DNA of 4,587 nt from a virus (Duplodnaviria; Heunggongvirae; Uroviricota; Caudoviricetes). Shown here one piece after another: positions 1 to 4,587 of this stretch. The stretch covers positions 1 to 4,587 of the IMG/VR virus record IMGVR_UViG_2778261227_000009, one strand, 5' to 3'. Both the position numbers and the translations under genes were made by a program. Each line of letters opens with the position of its first letter. The stretch's first letter is position 1. The notes under the pieces were generated by a model. That model was not told the origin of the DNA, did not search any database, and saw only the letters and a program-made list of their open reading frames with translations.

Positions 1-534
1 TCACTGATCTATCCCCCAACAGGCTAATGCGCTTTCCTGGTCACGACGAATAACCTGTCCATAGCAGTTATTTGAACTTATGCGGCAATCGCGCCCACCA
101 TCTTTTATCCACCAGCGAATCGCCTCGCATGCACCTTTACGATCACCAGCATTCAGCCGCTTATAAAACGTCGACGGAAAACACTTACCGGGGCCAATGT
201 TATAGGGACAAAATGACGCGATACCCGCTTTCTGTGGTTCCGTCAGTGATACCCGGATGTTTTTCTCCACCCATGCCAGCGCCTTATCACGTTCAATGGC
301 ATTAACCTGATTGCATTTTTCCTTCGACAGTTTCATTCCCGGTATGACGGGCTTACCATCCACCATGGTGGCACCACGACAGATGGTCCAGATACCCGCA
401 CCATCACGGTATGCCGTGGTGTGGTTACCTTCCTTTTCATTCAGAAACTGGTCGAGAATATCAGGCGCGGGCGCACCGACGGCAATCAGTGCCAGAACGG
501 CAGCCGACAGGCCGTATCTGATTTTTGCGTTCAT
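1..534 (-). CDS. rrrQ: SAR endolysin: a phage lysozyme (T4-lysozyme-like muramidase) with an N-terminal signal-anchor-release domain, of the R21/RrrQ type.
   Basis: The 177-aa ORF is complete, with ATG at 532-534 and stop at 1-3. The N-terminus, YGLSAAVLALIAVGAPAP (about nt 454-513), is Gly/Ala-rich and weakly hydrophobic, as expected of a SAR domain. The catalytic triad E35 (nt 430-432), D44 and T50 has the T4-lysozyme spacing E-x8-D-x5-T. The symbol is given by analogy to K-12 Qin RrrQ. Confidence 0.9.
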   Translation of the reverse strand: MNAKIRYGLSAAVLALIAVGAPAPDILDQFLNEKEGNHTTAYRDGAGIWTICRGATMVDGKPVIPGMKLSKEKCNQVNAIERDKALAWVEKNIRVSLTEPQKAGIASFCPYNIGPGKCFPSTFYKRLNAGDRKGACEAIRWWIKDGGRDCRISSNNCYGQVIRRDQESALACWGIDQ

Positions 535-597
535 GGATATTTATCAGGATTTATCGGTTTCTGCCCACGGACAGGTTTATCTGTTCCGGTCAGTGAC

Positions 598-948
598 TTA
601 AGGTTGTGATTCCGGAGGAGTCTTCAGAGAATCAGTAATTCTTCCTGGTAGCTTTCCTTTGTAGGTTATCCACACATTCTGCGCATCTAAAATTACGGGG
701 CGCTTTTCCGGCGACTGCTCATCCCCTTCACATAACCCGGCAGCAACATCCAGGAAGACCTGTCTGATGCTCCTTCTGGCTGCTGCCTCATAAAACTCCA
801 GCGCGGCACCTTCAACACGGTCCAGCGAGATGTCCAGGTCAAAAATTTCGCCGTCAAAGCGTTTTTTGTCCCGTAACGCTAAAGTTACCGTAACTTTATT
901 CTCAAAATTGCGGATCCCTTTCACAATCAGTTCATAGTTTTGAGTCAT
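598..948 (-). CDS. ydfR: DUF1327-family protein (YdfR-like) of unknown function, embedded between the holin and endolysin genes.
   Basis: This 116-aa ORF starts at ATG 946-948 with GGGGAGAG about 9 nt upstream, and that Shine-Dalgarno-like sequence overlaps the 3' end of the holin gene. The position between holin and lysozyme mirrors the K-12 Qin arrangement essQ-ydfR-rrrQ. The family name is recalled, not searched. Confidence 0.75.
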   Translation of the reverse strand: MTQNYELIVKGIRNFENKVTVTLALRDKKRFDGEIFDLDISLDRVEGAALEFYEAAARRSIRQVFLDVAAGLCEGDEQSPEKRPVILDAQNVWITYKGKLPGRITDSLKTPPESQP

Positions 949-952
949 TGAA

Positions 953-1168
953 TTACTCTCCCCGTGCAGCCTTACGCTTGTCTTCTCTGATTTTGAAGTA
1001 CAGATTTGTCAGATAAGTCAGGAAGCCCAGAACCAGACTCCCCAGTACACCAATCGCAGCCCACTGTGAAGGACTGACCTGATCAAGCCACTGTAAAAAC
1101 CAGTAGCCAGCACTACCTGCTGAGGTGCCATAGGCGACACCCGTTGTTAACTTATCCATGGATTTCAT
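953..1168 (-). CDS. essQ: Class II holin (pinholin) of the phage 21 S21 type, 71 aa, with a dual-start motif (Met1-Lys-Ser-Met4).
   Basis: The translation [71 protein letters not shown] has two transmembrane segments and a charged C-terminus, and closely resembles S21. The ATG at 1166-1168 is preceded by GAGGTGGGG about 2 nt upstream. The longer track ORF (to 1231) starts at GTG and would run through the upstream terminator hairpin, so it is rejected. The symbol is given by analogy to K-12 Qin EssQ. Confidence 0.85.
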
Positions 1169-1203
1169 AACCCCACCTCGCAGATGCGGGTGCTGTGTAA
1201 TGG

Positions 1204-1229
1204 AAATAAAAAGGCCACCTGACGTGGCC
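1204..1229 (-). terminator. Rho-independent terminator between the methyltransferase gene and the holin gene.
   Basis: The minus-strand RNA would be GGCCAC-GUCAG-GUGGCC followed by UUUUUAUUUCC. It begins 6 nt after the methyltransferase stop codon (1236-1238) and lies about 35 nt upstream of the holin start. Confidence 0.6.
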
Positions 1230-1235
1230 ACCAGA

Positions 1236-2288
1236 TTATTTCCCCACCAGCTCGTTTATCTCTTTCACTGTCTGATTAAACCGCTCTGACTCAAGCTCAA
1301 CACCTAAGGCCCGACGCCCCAGCGCCATTGCTGCTTTTATTGTGGAACCGGATCCCATAAAGAAATCAGCAACCAGATCACCAGGTCGACTACTGGCATT
1401 GATTATTTGCCGGAGCATATCCGCCGGTTTCTCGCACGGATGTTTACCCGGGTAGAACTGAACGGGCTTATGCGTCCAGACATCGGTATAAGGCACGGAG
1501 ACTGATACGGAGAAATAGCGCCGGAGAGATTTAAACTCATCCAGCAATTCAGAATATTTGCGATTCAGTGAATCATAAGATGCCACCAGCTGGTGGTGTG
1601 GTTGTTCCAGTTGTTGTTCCTGAAACTTCTCTGCCGCTATACGGGAAAACAGTGCCTGTAACTTCCGATAGTCAGCCTCATTCGGCAACTGCCACTGACT
1701 GGCACCAAACCAGTGGGAAACCATATTTTTCTTACCTGTGGCTTCGGCAATTTGTTTTGCCGTTATACCCAGTTCGGCACGAGCATCCCTGAAATACGAT
1801 ATCAGCGGTGCCATTATGTGCTGTTTGAGTTCCCTTTCTTTTGCTGCATAGCCGTCACTTTTGCCGCGATATGGCCCCTGGTAATGTTCAGCAAACAGAA
1901 CGCGCTCTGTGGCAGGAAAATATGCGCGCAGACTTTCTTTATTACACCCATTCCAACGTCCGGACGGCTTCGCCCAGATGATATGGTTAAGCACGTTGAA
2001 ACGTTCACGCATCATGATCTCAATATCAGATGCCAGGCGATGCCCACAGAACAGGTAAAGGCTTCCGGCAGGTTTTAACACCCGCCAGAACTGGGCCAGA
2101 CAGTGGTCCAGCCACTTAAGGTAATCTTCGTCCCCTTTCCACTGATTGTCCCAGCCGTTGGGCTTCACTTTGAAGTACGGCGGATCGGTAACTATCAGGT
2201 CAATGGAATCATCAGGCAGGGACTGAATAAAATGCAGGCAATCAGCGTTGATTAAATCAACACTGTTTATTTTTACAGTATTTTTCAT
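1236..2288 (-). CDS. Solitary DNA methyltransferase of the beta-class amino-methyltransferase family (N6-adenine or N4-cytosine; N6_N4_Mtase family).
   Basis: The 350-aa protein has motif IV DPPY at residues 35-38 (nt 2175-2186, codons checked by hand), HPCEKP at residues 283-288, and the SAM-binding motif I FFMGSGST at residues 309-316 (nt 1341-1364). Motif IV lying N-terminal to motif I defines the beta class. Between the motifs is a long insert of roughly residues 140-270 containing an HTH-like stretch ([14 protein letters not shown]), which is the presumed target-recognition region. No restriction endonuclease partner is visible in the window. Confidence 0.9.
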
Positions 2289-2437
2289 GGATCAGTAAGC
2301 GTAACTCTGGTAGGCTCACTCTGCTTTTGCGCTAAAGCAGTGGGCCATGGTTCGCTTGTGACCAGTAAGCATGAGCGAATGGCTGGCAGGTGCTACCAAC
2401 ACCCACCAGCCGCCCATTTTCACAAATTAAAAGCCCT

Positions 2438-2632
2438 TCATTGCTGAAGGCGTCTGTAACAGCCGAACTGGTTATCTGCCAGCCCCGCCATAACCAGCTG
2501 GGTCAGTATTAACTGACAGCGTTCGCGTGAAAGGTATGTGTTTTGTGCTATCTCCCCGACTGTTGCCGGTTTGCCGTTTAATTCATTAAAAACAACTTTC
2601 GCCGTTTCTGTCATATCTTGCGGTTTTAGCAT
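2438..2632 (-). CDS. Small (64 aa) winged-helix DNA-binding protein resembling the PapI/FaeA family of regulators.
   Basis: The ORF starts at ATG 2630-2632 with AAGGT about 9 nt upstream. The segment GKPATVGEIAQNTYLSRERCQLILTQLVMAGLA resembles the PapI/FaeA core (G-K-x-A-x-x-x-E-I-A ... Y ... R ... L ... AG) as I recall it. No HMM search was run. Confidence 0.5.
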   Translation of the reverse strand: MLKPQDMTETAKVVFNELNGKPATVGEIAQNTYLSRERCQLILTQLVMAGLADNQFGCYRRLQQ

Positions 2633-2753
2633 GTCTTTTTACCTTCATGGTTAACATGACATACCAATAACTCTTGTCTAAAAAGCCAGCAAGATAAAAA
2701 GTCAGTATTCACGACCACCAGCGTGTTTACCGTACTGCACCAATGTTTAATTT

Positions 2754-2777
2754 ATAAAAAAACCGCGAGAACGCGGT
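2754..2777 (-). terminator. Rho-independent terminator downstream of the 176-aa ORF.
   Basis: The minus-strand RNA would be ACCGCG-UUCU-CGCGGU followed by UUUUUUAUAAAUU: a 6-bp GC-rich stem, a 4-nt loop and a U6 tract. It lies 35 nt after the ORF stop at 2813-2815. Confidence 0.6.
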
Positions 2778-2812
2778 AAGTATTGTTAAAAAAAACAGTA
2801 ATTTCACTCAAC

Positions 2813-3343
2813 TTATTTAATACATTCTTTTGCTTGCGCATAATAAATTTTATGAGTATTAGCAAGCTTAACGAAGTTATACTTAACTGCCCCTAACAGG
2901 GTTCCAACTCTTGTATGCCCTTCCATTAAATGAAGCCCTGTTGTATTACTTTTCAGCAAAGCTCGATCTATAAAAAATGGAGGTTTGCACCATGTGCCAA
3001 AATTACACCAATGCGCTTTTATTTCATCATCCATAAATACATCGCCTTTACGGGTTGTGAAATCTTCAACGACCTCATGCAAAAAATCAGGGTAAGTAGC
3101 ATTATCCCCGATAGTTAAAAAATTTTTAGTGGGAAGTTCAATCAATTTCCATTCGATTTGGTCAATATTAAGATTCCCATAAAGCTCCTGAAATCTGTCA
3201 TAACCTGCCAATCCATAATAAATCTCCTGAATTACAGGAGTGGGTGCGGCGATAGAATATTGCTCACGAAGTATTCTTTCAGCCTCAGGAGCTTTAAATA
3301 TGGGTCTTTCTGAGAAAATAGGCAAAAGATCTCGGTATAACAT
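2813..3343 (-). CDS. Hypothetical protein of 176 aa encoded by an AT-rich, compositionally foreign gene (cargo/moron). Its function is unknown.
   Basis: This is an ATG-initiated 531-nt ORF with GGGGA 7 nt upstream of the start. Manual counts give about 30% GC for 3121-3180, against about 55% for 1381-1440 in the neighbouring methyltransferase gene. The translation has no hydrophobic signal peptide or membrane segment. An intrinsic terminator follows the stop codon. I do not recognise the protein family. Confidence 0.65.
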   Translation of the reverse strand: MLYRDLLPIFSERPIFKAPEAERILREQYSIAAPTPVIQEIYYGLAGYDRFQELYGNLNIDQIEWKLIELPTKNFLTIGDNATYPDFLHEVVEDFTTRKGDVFMDDEIKAHWCNFGTWCKPPFFIDRALLKSNTTGLHLMEGHTRVGTLLGAVKYNFVKLANTHKIYYAQAKECIK

Positions 3344-3372
3344 CCATATCCCCGTGTAAGAAAAAATAATTT

Positions 3373-3392
3373 AACCCGCTCGGCGGCGGGTT
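3373..3392 (-). terminator. GC-rich stem-loop (AACCCGC / GCGGGTT, 7-bp stem) between the candidate promoter and the 176-aa ORF. It may be a tR'-like terminator or a 5'-leader hairpin.
   Basis: A perfect 7-bp inverted repeat is visible in the sequence. On the minus strand it is followed by AAATTATTTTTT, so the U-tract is not directly adjacent to the stem and terminator strength is uncertain. Confidence 0.3.
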
Positions 3393-3437
3393 CTTGGACT
3401 TATCAACGGTAGACATACAAAGCCCATCGTTGGGAAA

Positions 3438-3466
3438 ATCTTATCCATGTTTTTTGAGAAATGCAA
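3438..3466 (-). promoter_or_regulatory. Candidate sigma70 promoter immediately downstream of Q, a possible pR'-like late promoter: -35 TTGCAT, 17-nt spacer, -10 TAAGAT on the minus strand.
   Basis: The minus-strand sequence is ATGCTTGCAT TTCTCAAAAAACATGGA TAAGAT TTTCCCA, read directly. It begins about 31 nt after the Q stop codon, which is where lambdoid pR' normally lies. This is a consensus match only, with no experimental support. Confidence 0.3.
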
Positions 3467-3497
3467 GCATCATGTCGCCATCTTCGGTGAAAATCAC

Positions 3498-4250
3498 TTA
3501 TCTCGTCACCTTTCTCAATTGTGCTTCAGCGTAAGCTTCTTCCTGCCAGCACTTTGTAACCAGTTTATCAATGACATCTGCATACCCCTTGTACCACTGA
3601 TAATCCGTCAGGTTCGGTACCAGTTTCTGGACATGATGCCGCGCCAGTGTGGTCGGTAAACGGCTAAACCGATTTCCATTACAACGCCCACAAATCTTAT
3701 AAACCGGCGCGCCATGAAGCCGGGTTCTTTTTTCATCCAGGACAATACCTTTACCCTTACACCCTCTGCACGCTGTGCTGACTTCTCCCTTACCATGACA
3801 ATGCTGACATAGTTCCTTCACCCACTCTTCCTTGATAACAGATTCCCCGCTTCTGGAGTGTTTTACCACCTCGCGCAATACATCATGAAATCCAGTACCA
3901 GCACAATGCTCACAGCGAGCCTTACTTGCCGCAGACCTGGAATAATCAGCAAATGCAAAATTCACAAGGTAAGGGATGATCTGTAACCGGGTTTCTTCAC
4001 TCAATTTATTCAATGTCGGGTTATCCAGTGCCATCGCGTAATTGAGCAGACCTTCAATCGCAAACTGAGGATCCTGAACACCAACTTTTGCCAGAAATAA
4101 GGCAAAACCCAGTGGTGCTTTCGACTGCACCATCCCCTGCGCAGCCATCACATCCGTAATCGTTAAACCACCAGAGCCTGTCGCCGGTGCGTCATCGCTC
4201 AATTTTGGAGATTTTGGGGAGTAATATTTTGGTAAGGCTTCAAGGTTCAT
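3498..4250 (-). CDS. quuQ: Late-gene antiterminator Q (QuuQ-like, about 250 aa) with four CxxCxGxG zinc-finger-like repeats.
   Basis: The protein is Cys/His-rich with four DnaJ-like repeats (CEHCAGTG, CQHCHGKG, CRGCKGKG, CGRCNGNR). It sits immediately upstream of the cargo and lysis genes, as Q does in lambdoid phages. The track ORF (3498..4292) begins with a GTG codon and would overlap the upstream gene by 29 nt. The first ATG, at 4248-4250 (MNLEALPKYY...), is preceded by GTGGAGAACGAGC as a Shine-Dalgarno-like sequence and leaves a 13-nt gap to the upstream stop. The symbol is given by analogy to K-12 Qin. Confidence 0.7.
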   Translation of the reverse strand: MNLEALPKYYSPKSPKLSDDAPATGSGGLTITDVMAAQGMVQSKAPLGFALFLAKVGVQDPQFAIEGLLNYAMALDNPTLNKLSEETRLQIIPYLVNFAFADYSRSAASKARCEHCAGTGFHDVLREVVKHSRSGESVIKEEWVKELCQHCHGKGEVSTACRGCKGKGIVLDEKRTRLHGAPVYKICGRCNGNRFSRLPTTLARHHVQKLVPNLTDYQWYKGYADVIDKLVTKCWQEEAYAEAQLRKVTR

Positions 4251-4263
4251 GCTCGTTCTCCAC

Positions 4264-4587
4264 TTACGCCAGTACGCCAATTGCCAGCGCACGATCGATA
4301 AAACGAAATATCAGCTCCAGCTGAGAGCCATACTTCTCTTCAAATGCCACGGTATCCGCATGCAGCTCGTCGTGATGCTTTCTGCACAAAGGCAACACAA
4401 AGAGGTCATGCGCTTTTGTACCCATTCCCCCCTGACCGTGGCCTATCAGGTGGTGGGGATCATCAGCAGGTTTTCCACAACATGCACACGGCTGTGTCTT
4501 AACCCAGCGTGTGTACTTTTCATTAACCCAGCGGCGACGTTTTGGGCGTAACATAAAAGACTCCGGCGACTCCGGATCCACTTTCAG
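4264..4587 (-). CDS. C-terminal part of a phage nin-region protein with an HNH-like Cys/His motif (DUF968 / YdfU-like). The 5' end is truncated by the window edge.
   Basis: The reading frame is open to the window edge, with no stop between 4582 and 4587, and the apparent first codon at 4579-4581 is GTG, so the gene most likely starts upstream of the window. The translation contains PCACCGKPADDPHHLIGHGQGGMGTKAHD...LPLCRKHHDELH, a zinc-ribbon/HNH-like motif. The stop is at 4264-4266, 13 nt upstream of the Q start. Naming the family DUF968 is from memory and has moderate reliability. Confidence 0.65.
   Translation of the reverse strand: MKVDPESPESFMLRPKRRRWVNEKYTRWVKTQPCACCGKPADDPHHLIGHGQGGMGTKAHDLFVLPLCRKHHDELHADTVAFEEKYGSQLELIFRFIDRALAIGVLA

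Follow-up and report, generated by a model that had tools for sequence, protein, structure and literature searches.

The interval between Q and the holin gene

The DNA analysed here, hereafter the window, is a stretch of 4,587 nt (positions 1 to 4,587 of the IMG/VR virus record IMGVR_UViG_2778261227_000009). It is 99.8% identical to a lambdoid prophage of Escherichia coli strain C311, and at least 80% of the whole window is present in 170 genomes. Every gene lies on the minus strand, in the transcript order C-terminus of a DUF968 protein, late-gene antiterminator Q, a 176-aa open reading frame (ORF), a 64-aa ORF, a methylase, a holin, YdfR/DUF1327 and lysozyme. The interval between Q and the holin gene (S), put at about 2.3 kb in a preliminary description of the sequence, runs exactly from 1169 to 3497 (2,329 bp) and holds three ORFs, of 176 aa (2813-3343), 64 aa (2438-2632) and 350 aa (an N6_N4 methyltransferase, 1236-2288), together with three hairpin-plus-T sites. 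It is probably the layered leader of a Q-dependent late operon, in which the late promoter pR' and its pause element are followed by a cassette placed at the terminator tR', a module made of an RNA leader and the methylase, a further terminator and the lysis genes.

The predicted late promoter and the terminators

Q (250 aa, 3498-4250, minus strand) matches Pfam Antiterm (PF03589, E = 1.7e-53) and, in the Protein Data Bank (PDB), the lambda Q entries 7ubm (E = 1.2e-38) and 4mo1 (E = 1.2e-25). It is a lambda-Q-like protein with an inserted CxxC zinc-ribbon segment (DnaJ_CXXCXGXG-like in Pfam), and RefSeq names it ydfT/antitermination protein. Directly after its stop codon lies the predicted late promoter (3438-3466, minus strand), composed of a -35 hexamer TTGCAT (3466-3461), a 17-nt spacer and a -10 hexamer TAAGAT (3443-3438). 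The -10-like, promoter-proximal pause element AACGATGGG (3423-3431, minus strand) follows 6 nt 3' of the -10 hexamer. The same layout is seen in lambda pR' (NC_001416), where TTGACT and TAAATT are separated by 17 nt and AACGATGGG again follows after 6 nt; the 9-mer and its spacing are identical in the two, and invariant across six aligned loci. The pR' positions are also invariant in an alignment with loci of Kosakonia, Mangrovibacter and Buttiauxella, and since the Q proteins there are only about 70% identical, this non-coding stretch appears to be under strong constraint. In lambda, elements of the AACGATGGG type have an established role in sigma70-dependent pausing. The segment 3466-3423 reads as pR' with a putative sigma70-dependent pause and Q-loading element. 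A consensus scan of the minus strand of the whole window found no sigma-70-like promoter, and missed pR' because its -35 hexamer matches the consensus at only three of six positions.

The three stem-loops listed in the preliminary description are real. They are the three top-ranked of 16 terminator-like sites found on the minus strand by consensus scan (4.9 +/- 2.5 in shuffled sequence), and all three fold better than shuffled sequence. The first is a tR'-type hairpin, AACCCGC-CGCCGA-GCGGGUU (stem 3392-3373, with a T-run to 3361; dG -11.7 kcal/mol, z -2.35). The second, t2 (2755-2777, stem 2777-2762; dG -9.7, z -3.2), is an intrinsic terminator of the form ACCGCG-UUCU-CGCGGU followed by U7, and is the first canonical terminator 3' of pR'. 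The third, t3 (1204-1229, stem 1229-1213; dG -12.2, z -2.3), has the form GGCCAC-GUCAG-GUGGCC followed by U5AUUU and lies between the methylase and the holin, where the annotations of phages SfV and Ayreon also place a terminator. All three are on the minus strand. At tR' the sequence of the window is GCGGGUUAAAUUAUUUUUU and that of SfV GCGGGUUUUUUUGUG. In the window the stem GCGGGUU is followed by AAAUUAUUUUUU, the proximal U-tract being degraded and replaced by AAAUUA, whereas both SfV and mEp460 carry GCGGGUUUUUUUGUG (sites compared: 3361-3392 of the window, 3069-3104 of the SfV locus, and the mEp460 locus). A rough T-tract score of the d'Aubenton-Carafa type, with approximate weights, was 0.9-2.4 for the window tR', 4.1-5.0 for the same hairpin in SfV, 4.6 for t2 and 4.65 for t3.

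Since pR' and the lysis genes are separated by three terminator-like sites, all in the sense orientation, and the scan showed no minus-strand promoter, lysis would depend on Q-mediated readthrough, as had been proposed; this is the natural reading and standard lambdoid biology. In a lysogen, transcripts from pR', which would fire just downstream of Q, are expected to halt at the first efficient terminators. On induction, Q-modified RNA polymerase would pass all three and enter the lysis and morphogenesis genes.

With the lambda late leader (Q, pR', the qut/pause element, tR' and 6S RNA) the window shares the Q homologue, the order and spacing of -35, -10 and AACGATGGG, a terminator-type hairpin approximately 40-70 nt downstream and lysis genes further downstream on the same strand. 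Unlike lambda, its Q has the zinc-ribbon insert, its tR' U-tract is disrupted by a cassette junction, and its holin is preceded by 2.3 kb that include three ORFs and two further terminators, where lambda has about 0.7 kb and no established gene. Transcription from pR' through the tR' hairpin (3361-3432, minus strand) would give a short leader RNA of approximately 60-70 nt, a positional counterpart of lambda 6S RNA and of StxS, the pR'-tR' short RNA of the corresponding leader in Shiga toxin (Stx) phages (PMC7547250). No Rfam family matched this short RNA.

Two layers and not one insert

The preliminary description took the Q-S interval for a variable hotspot and its three genes for one swapped module. 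The hotspot is borne out by E. coli K-12 Qin, which has the same types of Q, holin, YdfR and lysozyme and carries cspB/cspF/ynfU/ynfS and no methylase; the interval in phages 2H10 and Tritos is like that of Qin. The single module is contradicted by breakpoints inside the interval, at 3373 and at approximately 2743-2766, which are apparent from pairwise BLAST and from the junction sequences. Homology to phages without the cassette stops exactly at 3373, the base of the tR' stem, and on the downstream side true similarity picks up again at about 2742 (GGTGCAGTAC). In SfV the homologous blocks are 1174-2738 and 3373-4587 with 19 bp between them, so the first slot is empty and the order is Q, terminator, winged helix-turn-helix gene, methylase, terminator, S. 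mEp460 and Ayreon are homologous up to 2766 and from 3373 onward, and have unrelated ORFs of 138 and 141 aa in this slot. ETEC1718, which has a different, 121-aa Q, is homologous over 952-2766 and 4256-4587 and has a 148-aa ORF there on the opposite strand. E. coli O104:H4 is homologous over 1267-2769 at 79.5% and its slot is empty, and strain Nissle has a ClpP-like SDH protease and a 68-aa ORF. Apart from the protease, none of this alternative cargo belongs to a Pfam family, and none of it has a PADLOC match. In mEp460 and Ayreon the first-slot cassette has the tR' hairpin on either side, in nearly identical copies (AACCCGCC..GAGCGGGTTTTTT). Together with the junction at the base of the tR' stem in the window, this suggests that terminators may act as recombination joints between modules.

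The comparison with SfV, mEp460, Ayreon and ETEC1718, the junctions and the composition delimit a cassette from 3372 to approximately 2743 (minus strand) that consists of the 176-aa ORF and its own terminator. Its GC fraction is 0.345-0.425, against approximately 0.44-0.54 in the rest of the window (200-nt windows). Cassette DNA is found in 90 of 5,426 complete E. coli genomes, in one copy each. The DNA of the 64-aa gene and the methylase is found in 2,283 of the same genomes, in up to 8 copies per genome. Judged by these breakpoints and frequencies, the interval is made up of two nested or independent layers, an insert of one gene, which is rare, and a late-operon module that is very common, and not of one cargo block. 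The first layer would have been put at tR', where it replaces the U-tract and brings a strong terminator of its own.

A terminator-insulated accessory module of three genes, swapped as a unit into the hotspot and expressed by itself in the lysogen, would account for the difference from Qin between the same Q and lysis genes, for the terminators that flank the genes and for the 170 genomes that share most of the window. We regard it as very improbable. Besides the internal breakpoints, which already contradict it, there are the 25-fold gap in frequency between the 176-aa ORF and the methylase pair and their different composition, the recurrence of the methylase module behind at least four Q families, the absence of a minus-strand promoter from the scan and the silence of the relatives of the methylase, M.EcoGII among them, in lysogens.

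Taken alone, the cassette resembles the morons of lambdoid phages reportedly described by Juhala and Hendrix in 2000. Phages that are otherwise collinear may have it or lack it, it is a single gene of deviant composition, it has its own terminator (2777-2755) within cassette-specific sequence, and it sits in a known hotspot downstream of pR'. It differs in that no promoter of its own is detectable, the scan showing no promoter-like site on its minus strand, and in that it is located at or inside tR' and not after it. A further difference is that homologues of its gene keep the first place after Q behind unrelated Q families in other genera. A moron site at Q-pR' has been noted before (PMC4104026).

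The second slot, between methylase and holin, is empty in the window apart from t3. It has two small ORFs in CH4804, and tRNAs with nanS-p or DUF6645 in O104:H4 and O157:H7. The lysis cassette begins with an S21-type class II holin with a dual start, MKSM (953-1168, minus strand; Pfam Phage_holin_2_1 and RefSeq), followed on the same strand by YdfR/DUF1327 (598-948, Pfam DUF1327) and lysozyme (1-534, Pfam Phage_lysozyme). The position of the DUF1327/YdfR gene between the holin and a signal-anchor-release (SAR) type lysozyme is as in Qin.

The 176-aa gene and its possible place inside the pR' transcript

The 176-aa ORF (2813-3343, minus strand) belongs to an uncharacterised family, phrog_8867 (unknown function), and has a putative C-terminal ParB/sulfiredoxin-like domain with an invariant ...EGHTR.G.L.G motif. 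No Pfam (ParBc and Srx included), NCBIfam or PADLOC family was found for it. A word-based search gave 23 relatives, of which those with source names are all from Enterobacterales, and a profile search gave 346 representatives, mostly of 165-185 aa. Ten longer relatives were inspected for fusion clues and had no Pfam domain at all. Further matches were to SbnI, BrxU, KorB, SerK, Osa and SspE. The residues E141-G142-H143-T144-R145 are invariant in 17 homologues, and this loop fits the GxxR/GCHR nucleotide-binding loop of the ParB/sulfiredoxin superfamily. With moderate confidence the protein is assigned a ParB/sulfiredoxin-like fold. Compared with the members of the ParB-N/sulfiredoxin superfamily (ParB, KorB, PadC, Srx, SbnI and the N-domains of DUF262/GmrSD), it has a novel N-terminal helical half and lacks a helix-turn-helix (HTH) or dimerisation domain.

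The distance from the end of the tR' T-run (3361) to the ATG (3343) is only 17 nt, and from the hairpin stem (3373) only 29 nt. The cassette has no room for a promoter, and the scan found no site there. The degraded U-tract of tR' means that the ORF may nevertheless be transcribed from pR' in lysogens. Independent expression of the cargo in the lysogen, as first put forward, therefore survives as a possibility for the 176-aa ORF, by way of pR' and a weak tR' and not from a promoter of its own, and fails for the other two genes. Homologues with approximately 50% identity in Salmonella (L094, 4001-4525) and Hafnia (L097-L099, 4001-4534) are again the first gene after Q, and the Q proteins upstream of them belong to a different, unrelated family (PF06323). 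In both genera the homologue of the 176-aa ORF lies downstream of a promoter-like site that overlaps the Q 3' end, with no canonical terminator before the homologue and with a canonical terminator, or a hairpin, behind it. That the gene family lies within the Q-independent part of the pR' transcript, and could be made in lysogens without its own promoter, is in our judgement evenly balanced; for the gene of the window such a position, with some expression in the lysogen, is probable. The family appears to exploit the always-on late promoter from a place upstream of the first effective terminator, which would be a new route to lysogen expression.

The methylase and its module

The methylase (1236-2288, minus strand) is an orphan beta-class N6-adenine DNA methyltransferase of the M.EcoGII family. 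Residues 29-341 match Pfam N6_N4_Mtase (E = 1.3e-42), and DPPY at 35-38, a central target recognition domain (TRD) and FMGSGS at 310-315 are in the beta-class order. It is identical to M.EcoGII (EGT69837.1) at 282 of 349 positions (81%, with 91% positives), end to end; the reference was taken from an OCR copy of Supplementary Table S1 of PMC11551740, in which a few residues may be wrong. Its cluster at 90% identity has 4,060 members. The enzyme had been described as solitary, and the annotation of the 28.6-kb stretch around the window includes no restriction endonuclease. The early region of the C311 prophage (L001, 18799-19456) has a second, frameshifted 'phage N-6-adenine-methyltransferase' pseudogene, so the late M.EcoGII-type gene is not the only methylase locus of the prophage. 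A role in anti-phage defence was considered for the three proteins and the alternative cargo of the first slot, and was rejected; of all these, PADLOC recognised only the methylase, by generic type II/orphan methylase models.

Lysogens do not express M.EcoGI or M.EcoGII, and constitutive expression of these enzymes is deleterious (Murray et al. 2018, PMC5778455; also PMC12707154). The window shares with M.EcoGII and M.EcoGI of E. coli O104:H4 C227-11 (PMC5778455) the beta-class motif order, the prophage context and the locus order. The O104:H4 homologue (locus L007) is 94% identical to M.EcoGII, and there the order is antiterminator, 65-aa ORF, leader, methylase and tRNAs. The window methylase belongs to a different allele cluster, and its second slot is empty where O104:H4 has tRNAs and nanS-p. 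It is predicted to be a non-specific adenine methylase of the M.EcoGII type.

With one genome scanned for each species, 80 loci were found, ranging from Escherichia to Providencia, Proteus, Morganella, Yersinia, Photorhabdus and Xenorhabdus; 78 of them were analysed. Q was sought with five queries, which collapse into four best-matching types. A recognisable Q lies upstream on the same strand in 60 of the 78 loci, a holin or lysozyme downstream on the same strand in 55, and both Q and a lysis gene are present in 42. Among the 60 loci with Q, 37 have an empty first slot (<=375 nt) and 23 a filled one (628-2,242 nt); the second slot is shorter than 200 nt in 20 of 55. The module thus occurs behind at least four Q families and ahead of several lysis cassettes. 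In Yersinia phage PY54 the methylase precedes annotated lysis proteins, and in Aeromonas phage PhAER-1 it precedes hypothetical proteins whose homologues stand at the holin position in other loci. Across the species sampled, the 64-aa gene and the methylase are, by their distribution, a near-core module of the late leader and not a local swap. Eight Xenorhabdus loci (L070, L075, L077, L079, L084, L086, L087 and L088) have an in-frame stop at methylase codon 3 ('ME*PVNL...') and a shortened variant of the leader; possible causes are a wrongly set start, recoding, or a pseudogene state that these loci share.

The second layer, an optional 64-aa gene with the leader and the methylase, would stand behind the terminators with no detectable promoter of its own. 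Such a place on a Q-dependent late transcript would explain the silence of M.EcoGI and M.EcoGII in lysogens. By its position the toxic methylase would be silent in the lysogen and made only late in lytic growth, when it would methylate progeny phage DNA before packaging and so may blunt host restriction.

The 64-aa winged-helix gene

The 64-aa protein (2438-2632, minus strand; phrog_331) is a minimal winged helix. The AlphaFold2 model (pLDDT 90.6) consists of three helices, H1-H2-H3, and a wing formed by a beta-hairpin. Foldseek matched it to generic winged-helix domains of O-methyltransferases, MarR/OhrR, IclR, SelB and Z-alpha, with TM-scores of 0.6-0.8 and none at E < 0.001. In Pfam only TrmB was hit, below the cutoff (E = 0.005), and some relatives match DprA_WH (PF17782) instead. 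The gene had been called PapI-like. No PapI/FaeA (PF04703) was found in Pfam, in a PDB sequence search at E <= 10, which returned YraP and RpoD only, or in the Foldseek top 50. The model points to a generic winged helix, and the likeness to PapI is unsupported beyond the fold class. Lambda orf-64 was also compared; the lengths are equal and the sequences unrelated.

This bears on the idea that the methylase is a sequence-specific epigenetic regulator which works with a PapI-like cofactor in the lysogen, in the manner of Dam/PapI phase variation. A small winged-helix gene does adjoin an adenine methylase, and a GATC overlaps the ribosome-binding region of the latter. The missing PapI relationship, the 81% identity to a characterised non-specific enzyme that is silent in lysogens and the place of the locus in a late operon make the idea scarcely credible.

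The conserved parts of the protein are its N-terminus, MLKQQDMTETA, and helix 3, RCQLILTQL. A homologue is present in 50 of the 78 species loci (55 by tblastn hits). In the others the leader and methylase stand behind other genes or directly behind Q-pR'-tR', as in Kosakonia (L027) and Hafnia (L068). The 64-aa gene is a frequent but dispensable partner of the methylase. Between t2 and its start, approximately 110 nt (2633-2742, minus strand; ...TTGCTGGCTTTTTAGACAAGAGTTATTGGTATGTCATGTTAACC...) are conserved in the ~80%-identical O104:H4 and O157:H7 and partly in Nissle. This segment has no consensus promoter and is predicted to form hairpins, including one that involves pairing with the start region of the 64-aa ORF.

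These observations can be read as signs of a self-regulated unit, in which a weak promoter upstream of the 64-aa gene drives this gene and the methylase, the winged helix represses or times that promoter much as C-proteins control restriction-modification systems, and Q readthrough is incidental. The conservation of the 120 nt upstream of the gene (2633-2742) in ~80%-identical relatives, the highly conserved helix 3, which suggests a conserved nucleic-acid target, and the joint occurrence of the pair in 50-55 of 78 loci agree with this. However, 2633-2742 contains no sigma-70 consensus match, the best hexamers found by eye reaching about 3/6 each. The 64-aa gene is missing from about a quarter of loci, where leader and methylase follow Q-pR'-tR' or other genes, and the module is nearly always embedded in, and co-oriented with, the late operon. 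A self-regulated unit is unlikely.

A structured RNA leader fused to the methylase

The 149 nt from the stop codon of the 64-aa ORF to the methylase ATG are conserved above the level of the flanking coding sequence, even in PY54. A search of the whole window with cmscan against 4,227 Rfam 15 families, with permissive filters, gave no matches at E <= 1. The single-sequence fold of the leader has a dG of -58.7 and a z of -2.4. A five-helix model was drawn by hand from 58 aligned leaders and then tested. It covers 141 nt (2289-2429, minus strand) and comprises a three-way junction (P1-P3), two hairpins (P4 and P5) and the sequence UGAUC(C/U)AUG, the leader abutting the methylase ATG. P1 (UGGGC/GCCCA) closes the junction. 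P2 is a freely varying stem of 12 bp, for example GGCUGGUGGGUG/CACCUGCCAGCC, GAUCGGAGAGCG/CACUCUUCCGAUC or GGCAGAAGAGUG/CACUGCUUCUGCC, and P3 is UUCGCU/AGCGAA.

In the MAFFT alignment 81.8% of the cells assigned to pairs are paired (31-49% in slid controls), and in a model-fitted alignment of 74 hits, which leans towards the model, 85% (at most 49%). Double changes occupy 83 cells of the MAFFT alignment against 26.9 +/- 4.4 in shuffles, none of 500 reaching 83, and 145 cells of the model-fitted alignment against 38 +/- 4.7. Compensatory changes are seen in 18 of the 37 pairs by the first alignment and in 27 of 37 by the second. RNAalifold alone, on the MAFFT alignment, returned only P2 and an alternative long-range helix.

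A covariance model scored 160.8 bits on the window over 2280-2429, which includes 9 nt of coding sequence. Over 646 kb each locus gave exactly one match, which in every case was on the strand of the methylase and adjoined the methylase ATG. The leader of Aeromonas phage PhAER-1, outside the training set, was found with 35 bits (E = 4e-6). A pattern scan of IMG/VR gave 121 matches, 119 of them with enough downstream sequence, and in 116 the methylase ORF follows at a fixed distance of 65-67 nt. Of the rest, two are not real motifs, having no covariance-model match, and one precedes a truncated methylase, so that 116 of 117 true instances are accounted for. One IMG/VR contig (L159) has the complete leader twice on one strand, at 284-434 and, some 3 kb away, at 3269-3419, and presumably two copies of the methylase as well. 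The leader is, on the strength of this covariation, a structured RNA strictly linked to the methylase, in 74 loci as well as in the IMG/VR instances. A catalogue of 10,006 viral candidate RNAs published in 2023 lists four unnamed candidates 'upstream of DNA N-6-adenine-methyltransferase' (PMC10690425), of which one may be this leader.

No canonical Shine-Dalgarno sequence precedes the methylase, which has only UGAUC(C) in its place. The 3' end of 16S rRNA contains GGAUCA, to which UGAUC(C) is complementary. GATC, a Dam site, is conserved within UGAUC(U/C)AUG (window 2289-2296; columns 158-165 of alignment A3) in almost all loci of Enterobacteriaceae, Providencia and Morganella, and may have its meaning at the DNA level or at the RNA level. 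A pseudoknot between the P3 loop (GGUCA) and UGAUC, proposed by eye, was dropped, as loci without GAUC keep GGUCAC and covariation gives no support. Occlusion of the start codon by 'CCAUGG', seen in the minimum free energy (MFE) fold of the window in long context, was also dropped, as the segment is not conserved.

The most likely role of the leader is in cis, affecting translation or the stability of the mRNA, and it would thereby limit or time the synthesis of the methylase. Candidate ligands are S-adenosylmethionine (SAM) or S-adenosylhomocysteine (SAH), the winged-helix protein and the methylase itself, the last because M.EcoGII binds and methylates RNA (PMC5778455).

If the 64-aa protein were the ligand, the locus might work like the com-mom switch of phage Mu, with the protein binding the leader RNA and being needed for translation of the toxic methylase. 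The logic is Mu-like in that a small ORF lies directly upstream and a structured mRNA leader precedes a toxic DNA-modifying enzyme which is silent in the lysogen and made late, and a review pairs Mom with M.EcoGII (PMC12707154). The lack of a canonical Shine-Dalgarno sequence beyond UGAUC, the stop-to-ATG spacing fixed at 147-153 nt in most loci of the Enterobacteriaceae type and the ability of some winged helices to bind RNA (SelB is among the structural matches) fit as well. However, the leader is kept without the 64-aa gene in approximately 23-28 of 78 loci, so that roughly between a quarter and a third of them do without the partner, the start codon is not occluded in the modelled leader, and the protein is a winged helix with two Cys and not a zinc finger of the Com type. 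The two systems have no relation in sequence or fold, and Mu transcription is under C/Dam/OxyR control where that of the window would depend on Q antitermination. We consider such a switch improbable.

Weight of the evidence

Several points weigh against the layered late leader, which remains the probable explanation of the interval. The promoter, the pause site, the efficiency of the terminators and expression in the lysogenic and lytic states have all been read from sequence and from homologues. The -35 hexamer of pR' is weak, the T-tract score gauges the strength of a terminator only crudely, and in Hafnia and Salmonella the promoter-like sites are no more than matches to a consensus. A weak, non-consensus promoter within the conserved segment 2633-2742 is possible. 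An identity of 81% is no proof of non-specific activity, and the modelled fold of the leader leaves the region of the start codon unpaired, so that simple occlusion is not evident.

The hotspot between Q and S and the readthrough of terminators by Q are textbook knowledge (PMC4104026). Worth following up are the structured RNA ahead of the methylase and, possibly, the placing of a gene within the pR' transcript. We propose tentatively, at somewhat less than an even chance, that the leader is a new class of cis-regulatory RNA for methylases of the M.EcoGII family, present in approximately 40% of E. coli genomes and in Enterobacterales, which gates or autoregulates a toxic enzyme, and that the 176-aa family has the pR' route to expression besides.

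The late-operon position offers a concrete explanation for the silence in lysogens of M.EcoGI and M.EcoGII, enzymes widely used in biotechnology, and a place just ahead of the lysis genes would suit the methylation of progeny DNA against restriction. All intact members of this methylase family carry a fused RNA that covaries strongly and is absent from Rfam. This RNA is found in one of the most thoroughly studied organisms, and makes the control of a toxic, non-specific nucleic-acid methylase directly testable. A gene between pR' and the first working terminator suggests a route to expression in the lysogen, and this may be relevant to how prophage accessory and toxin genes in the same hotspot are wired.

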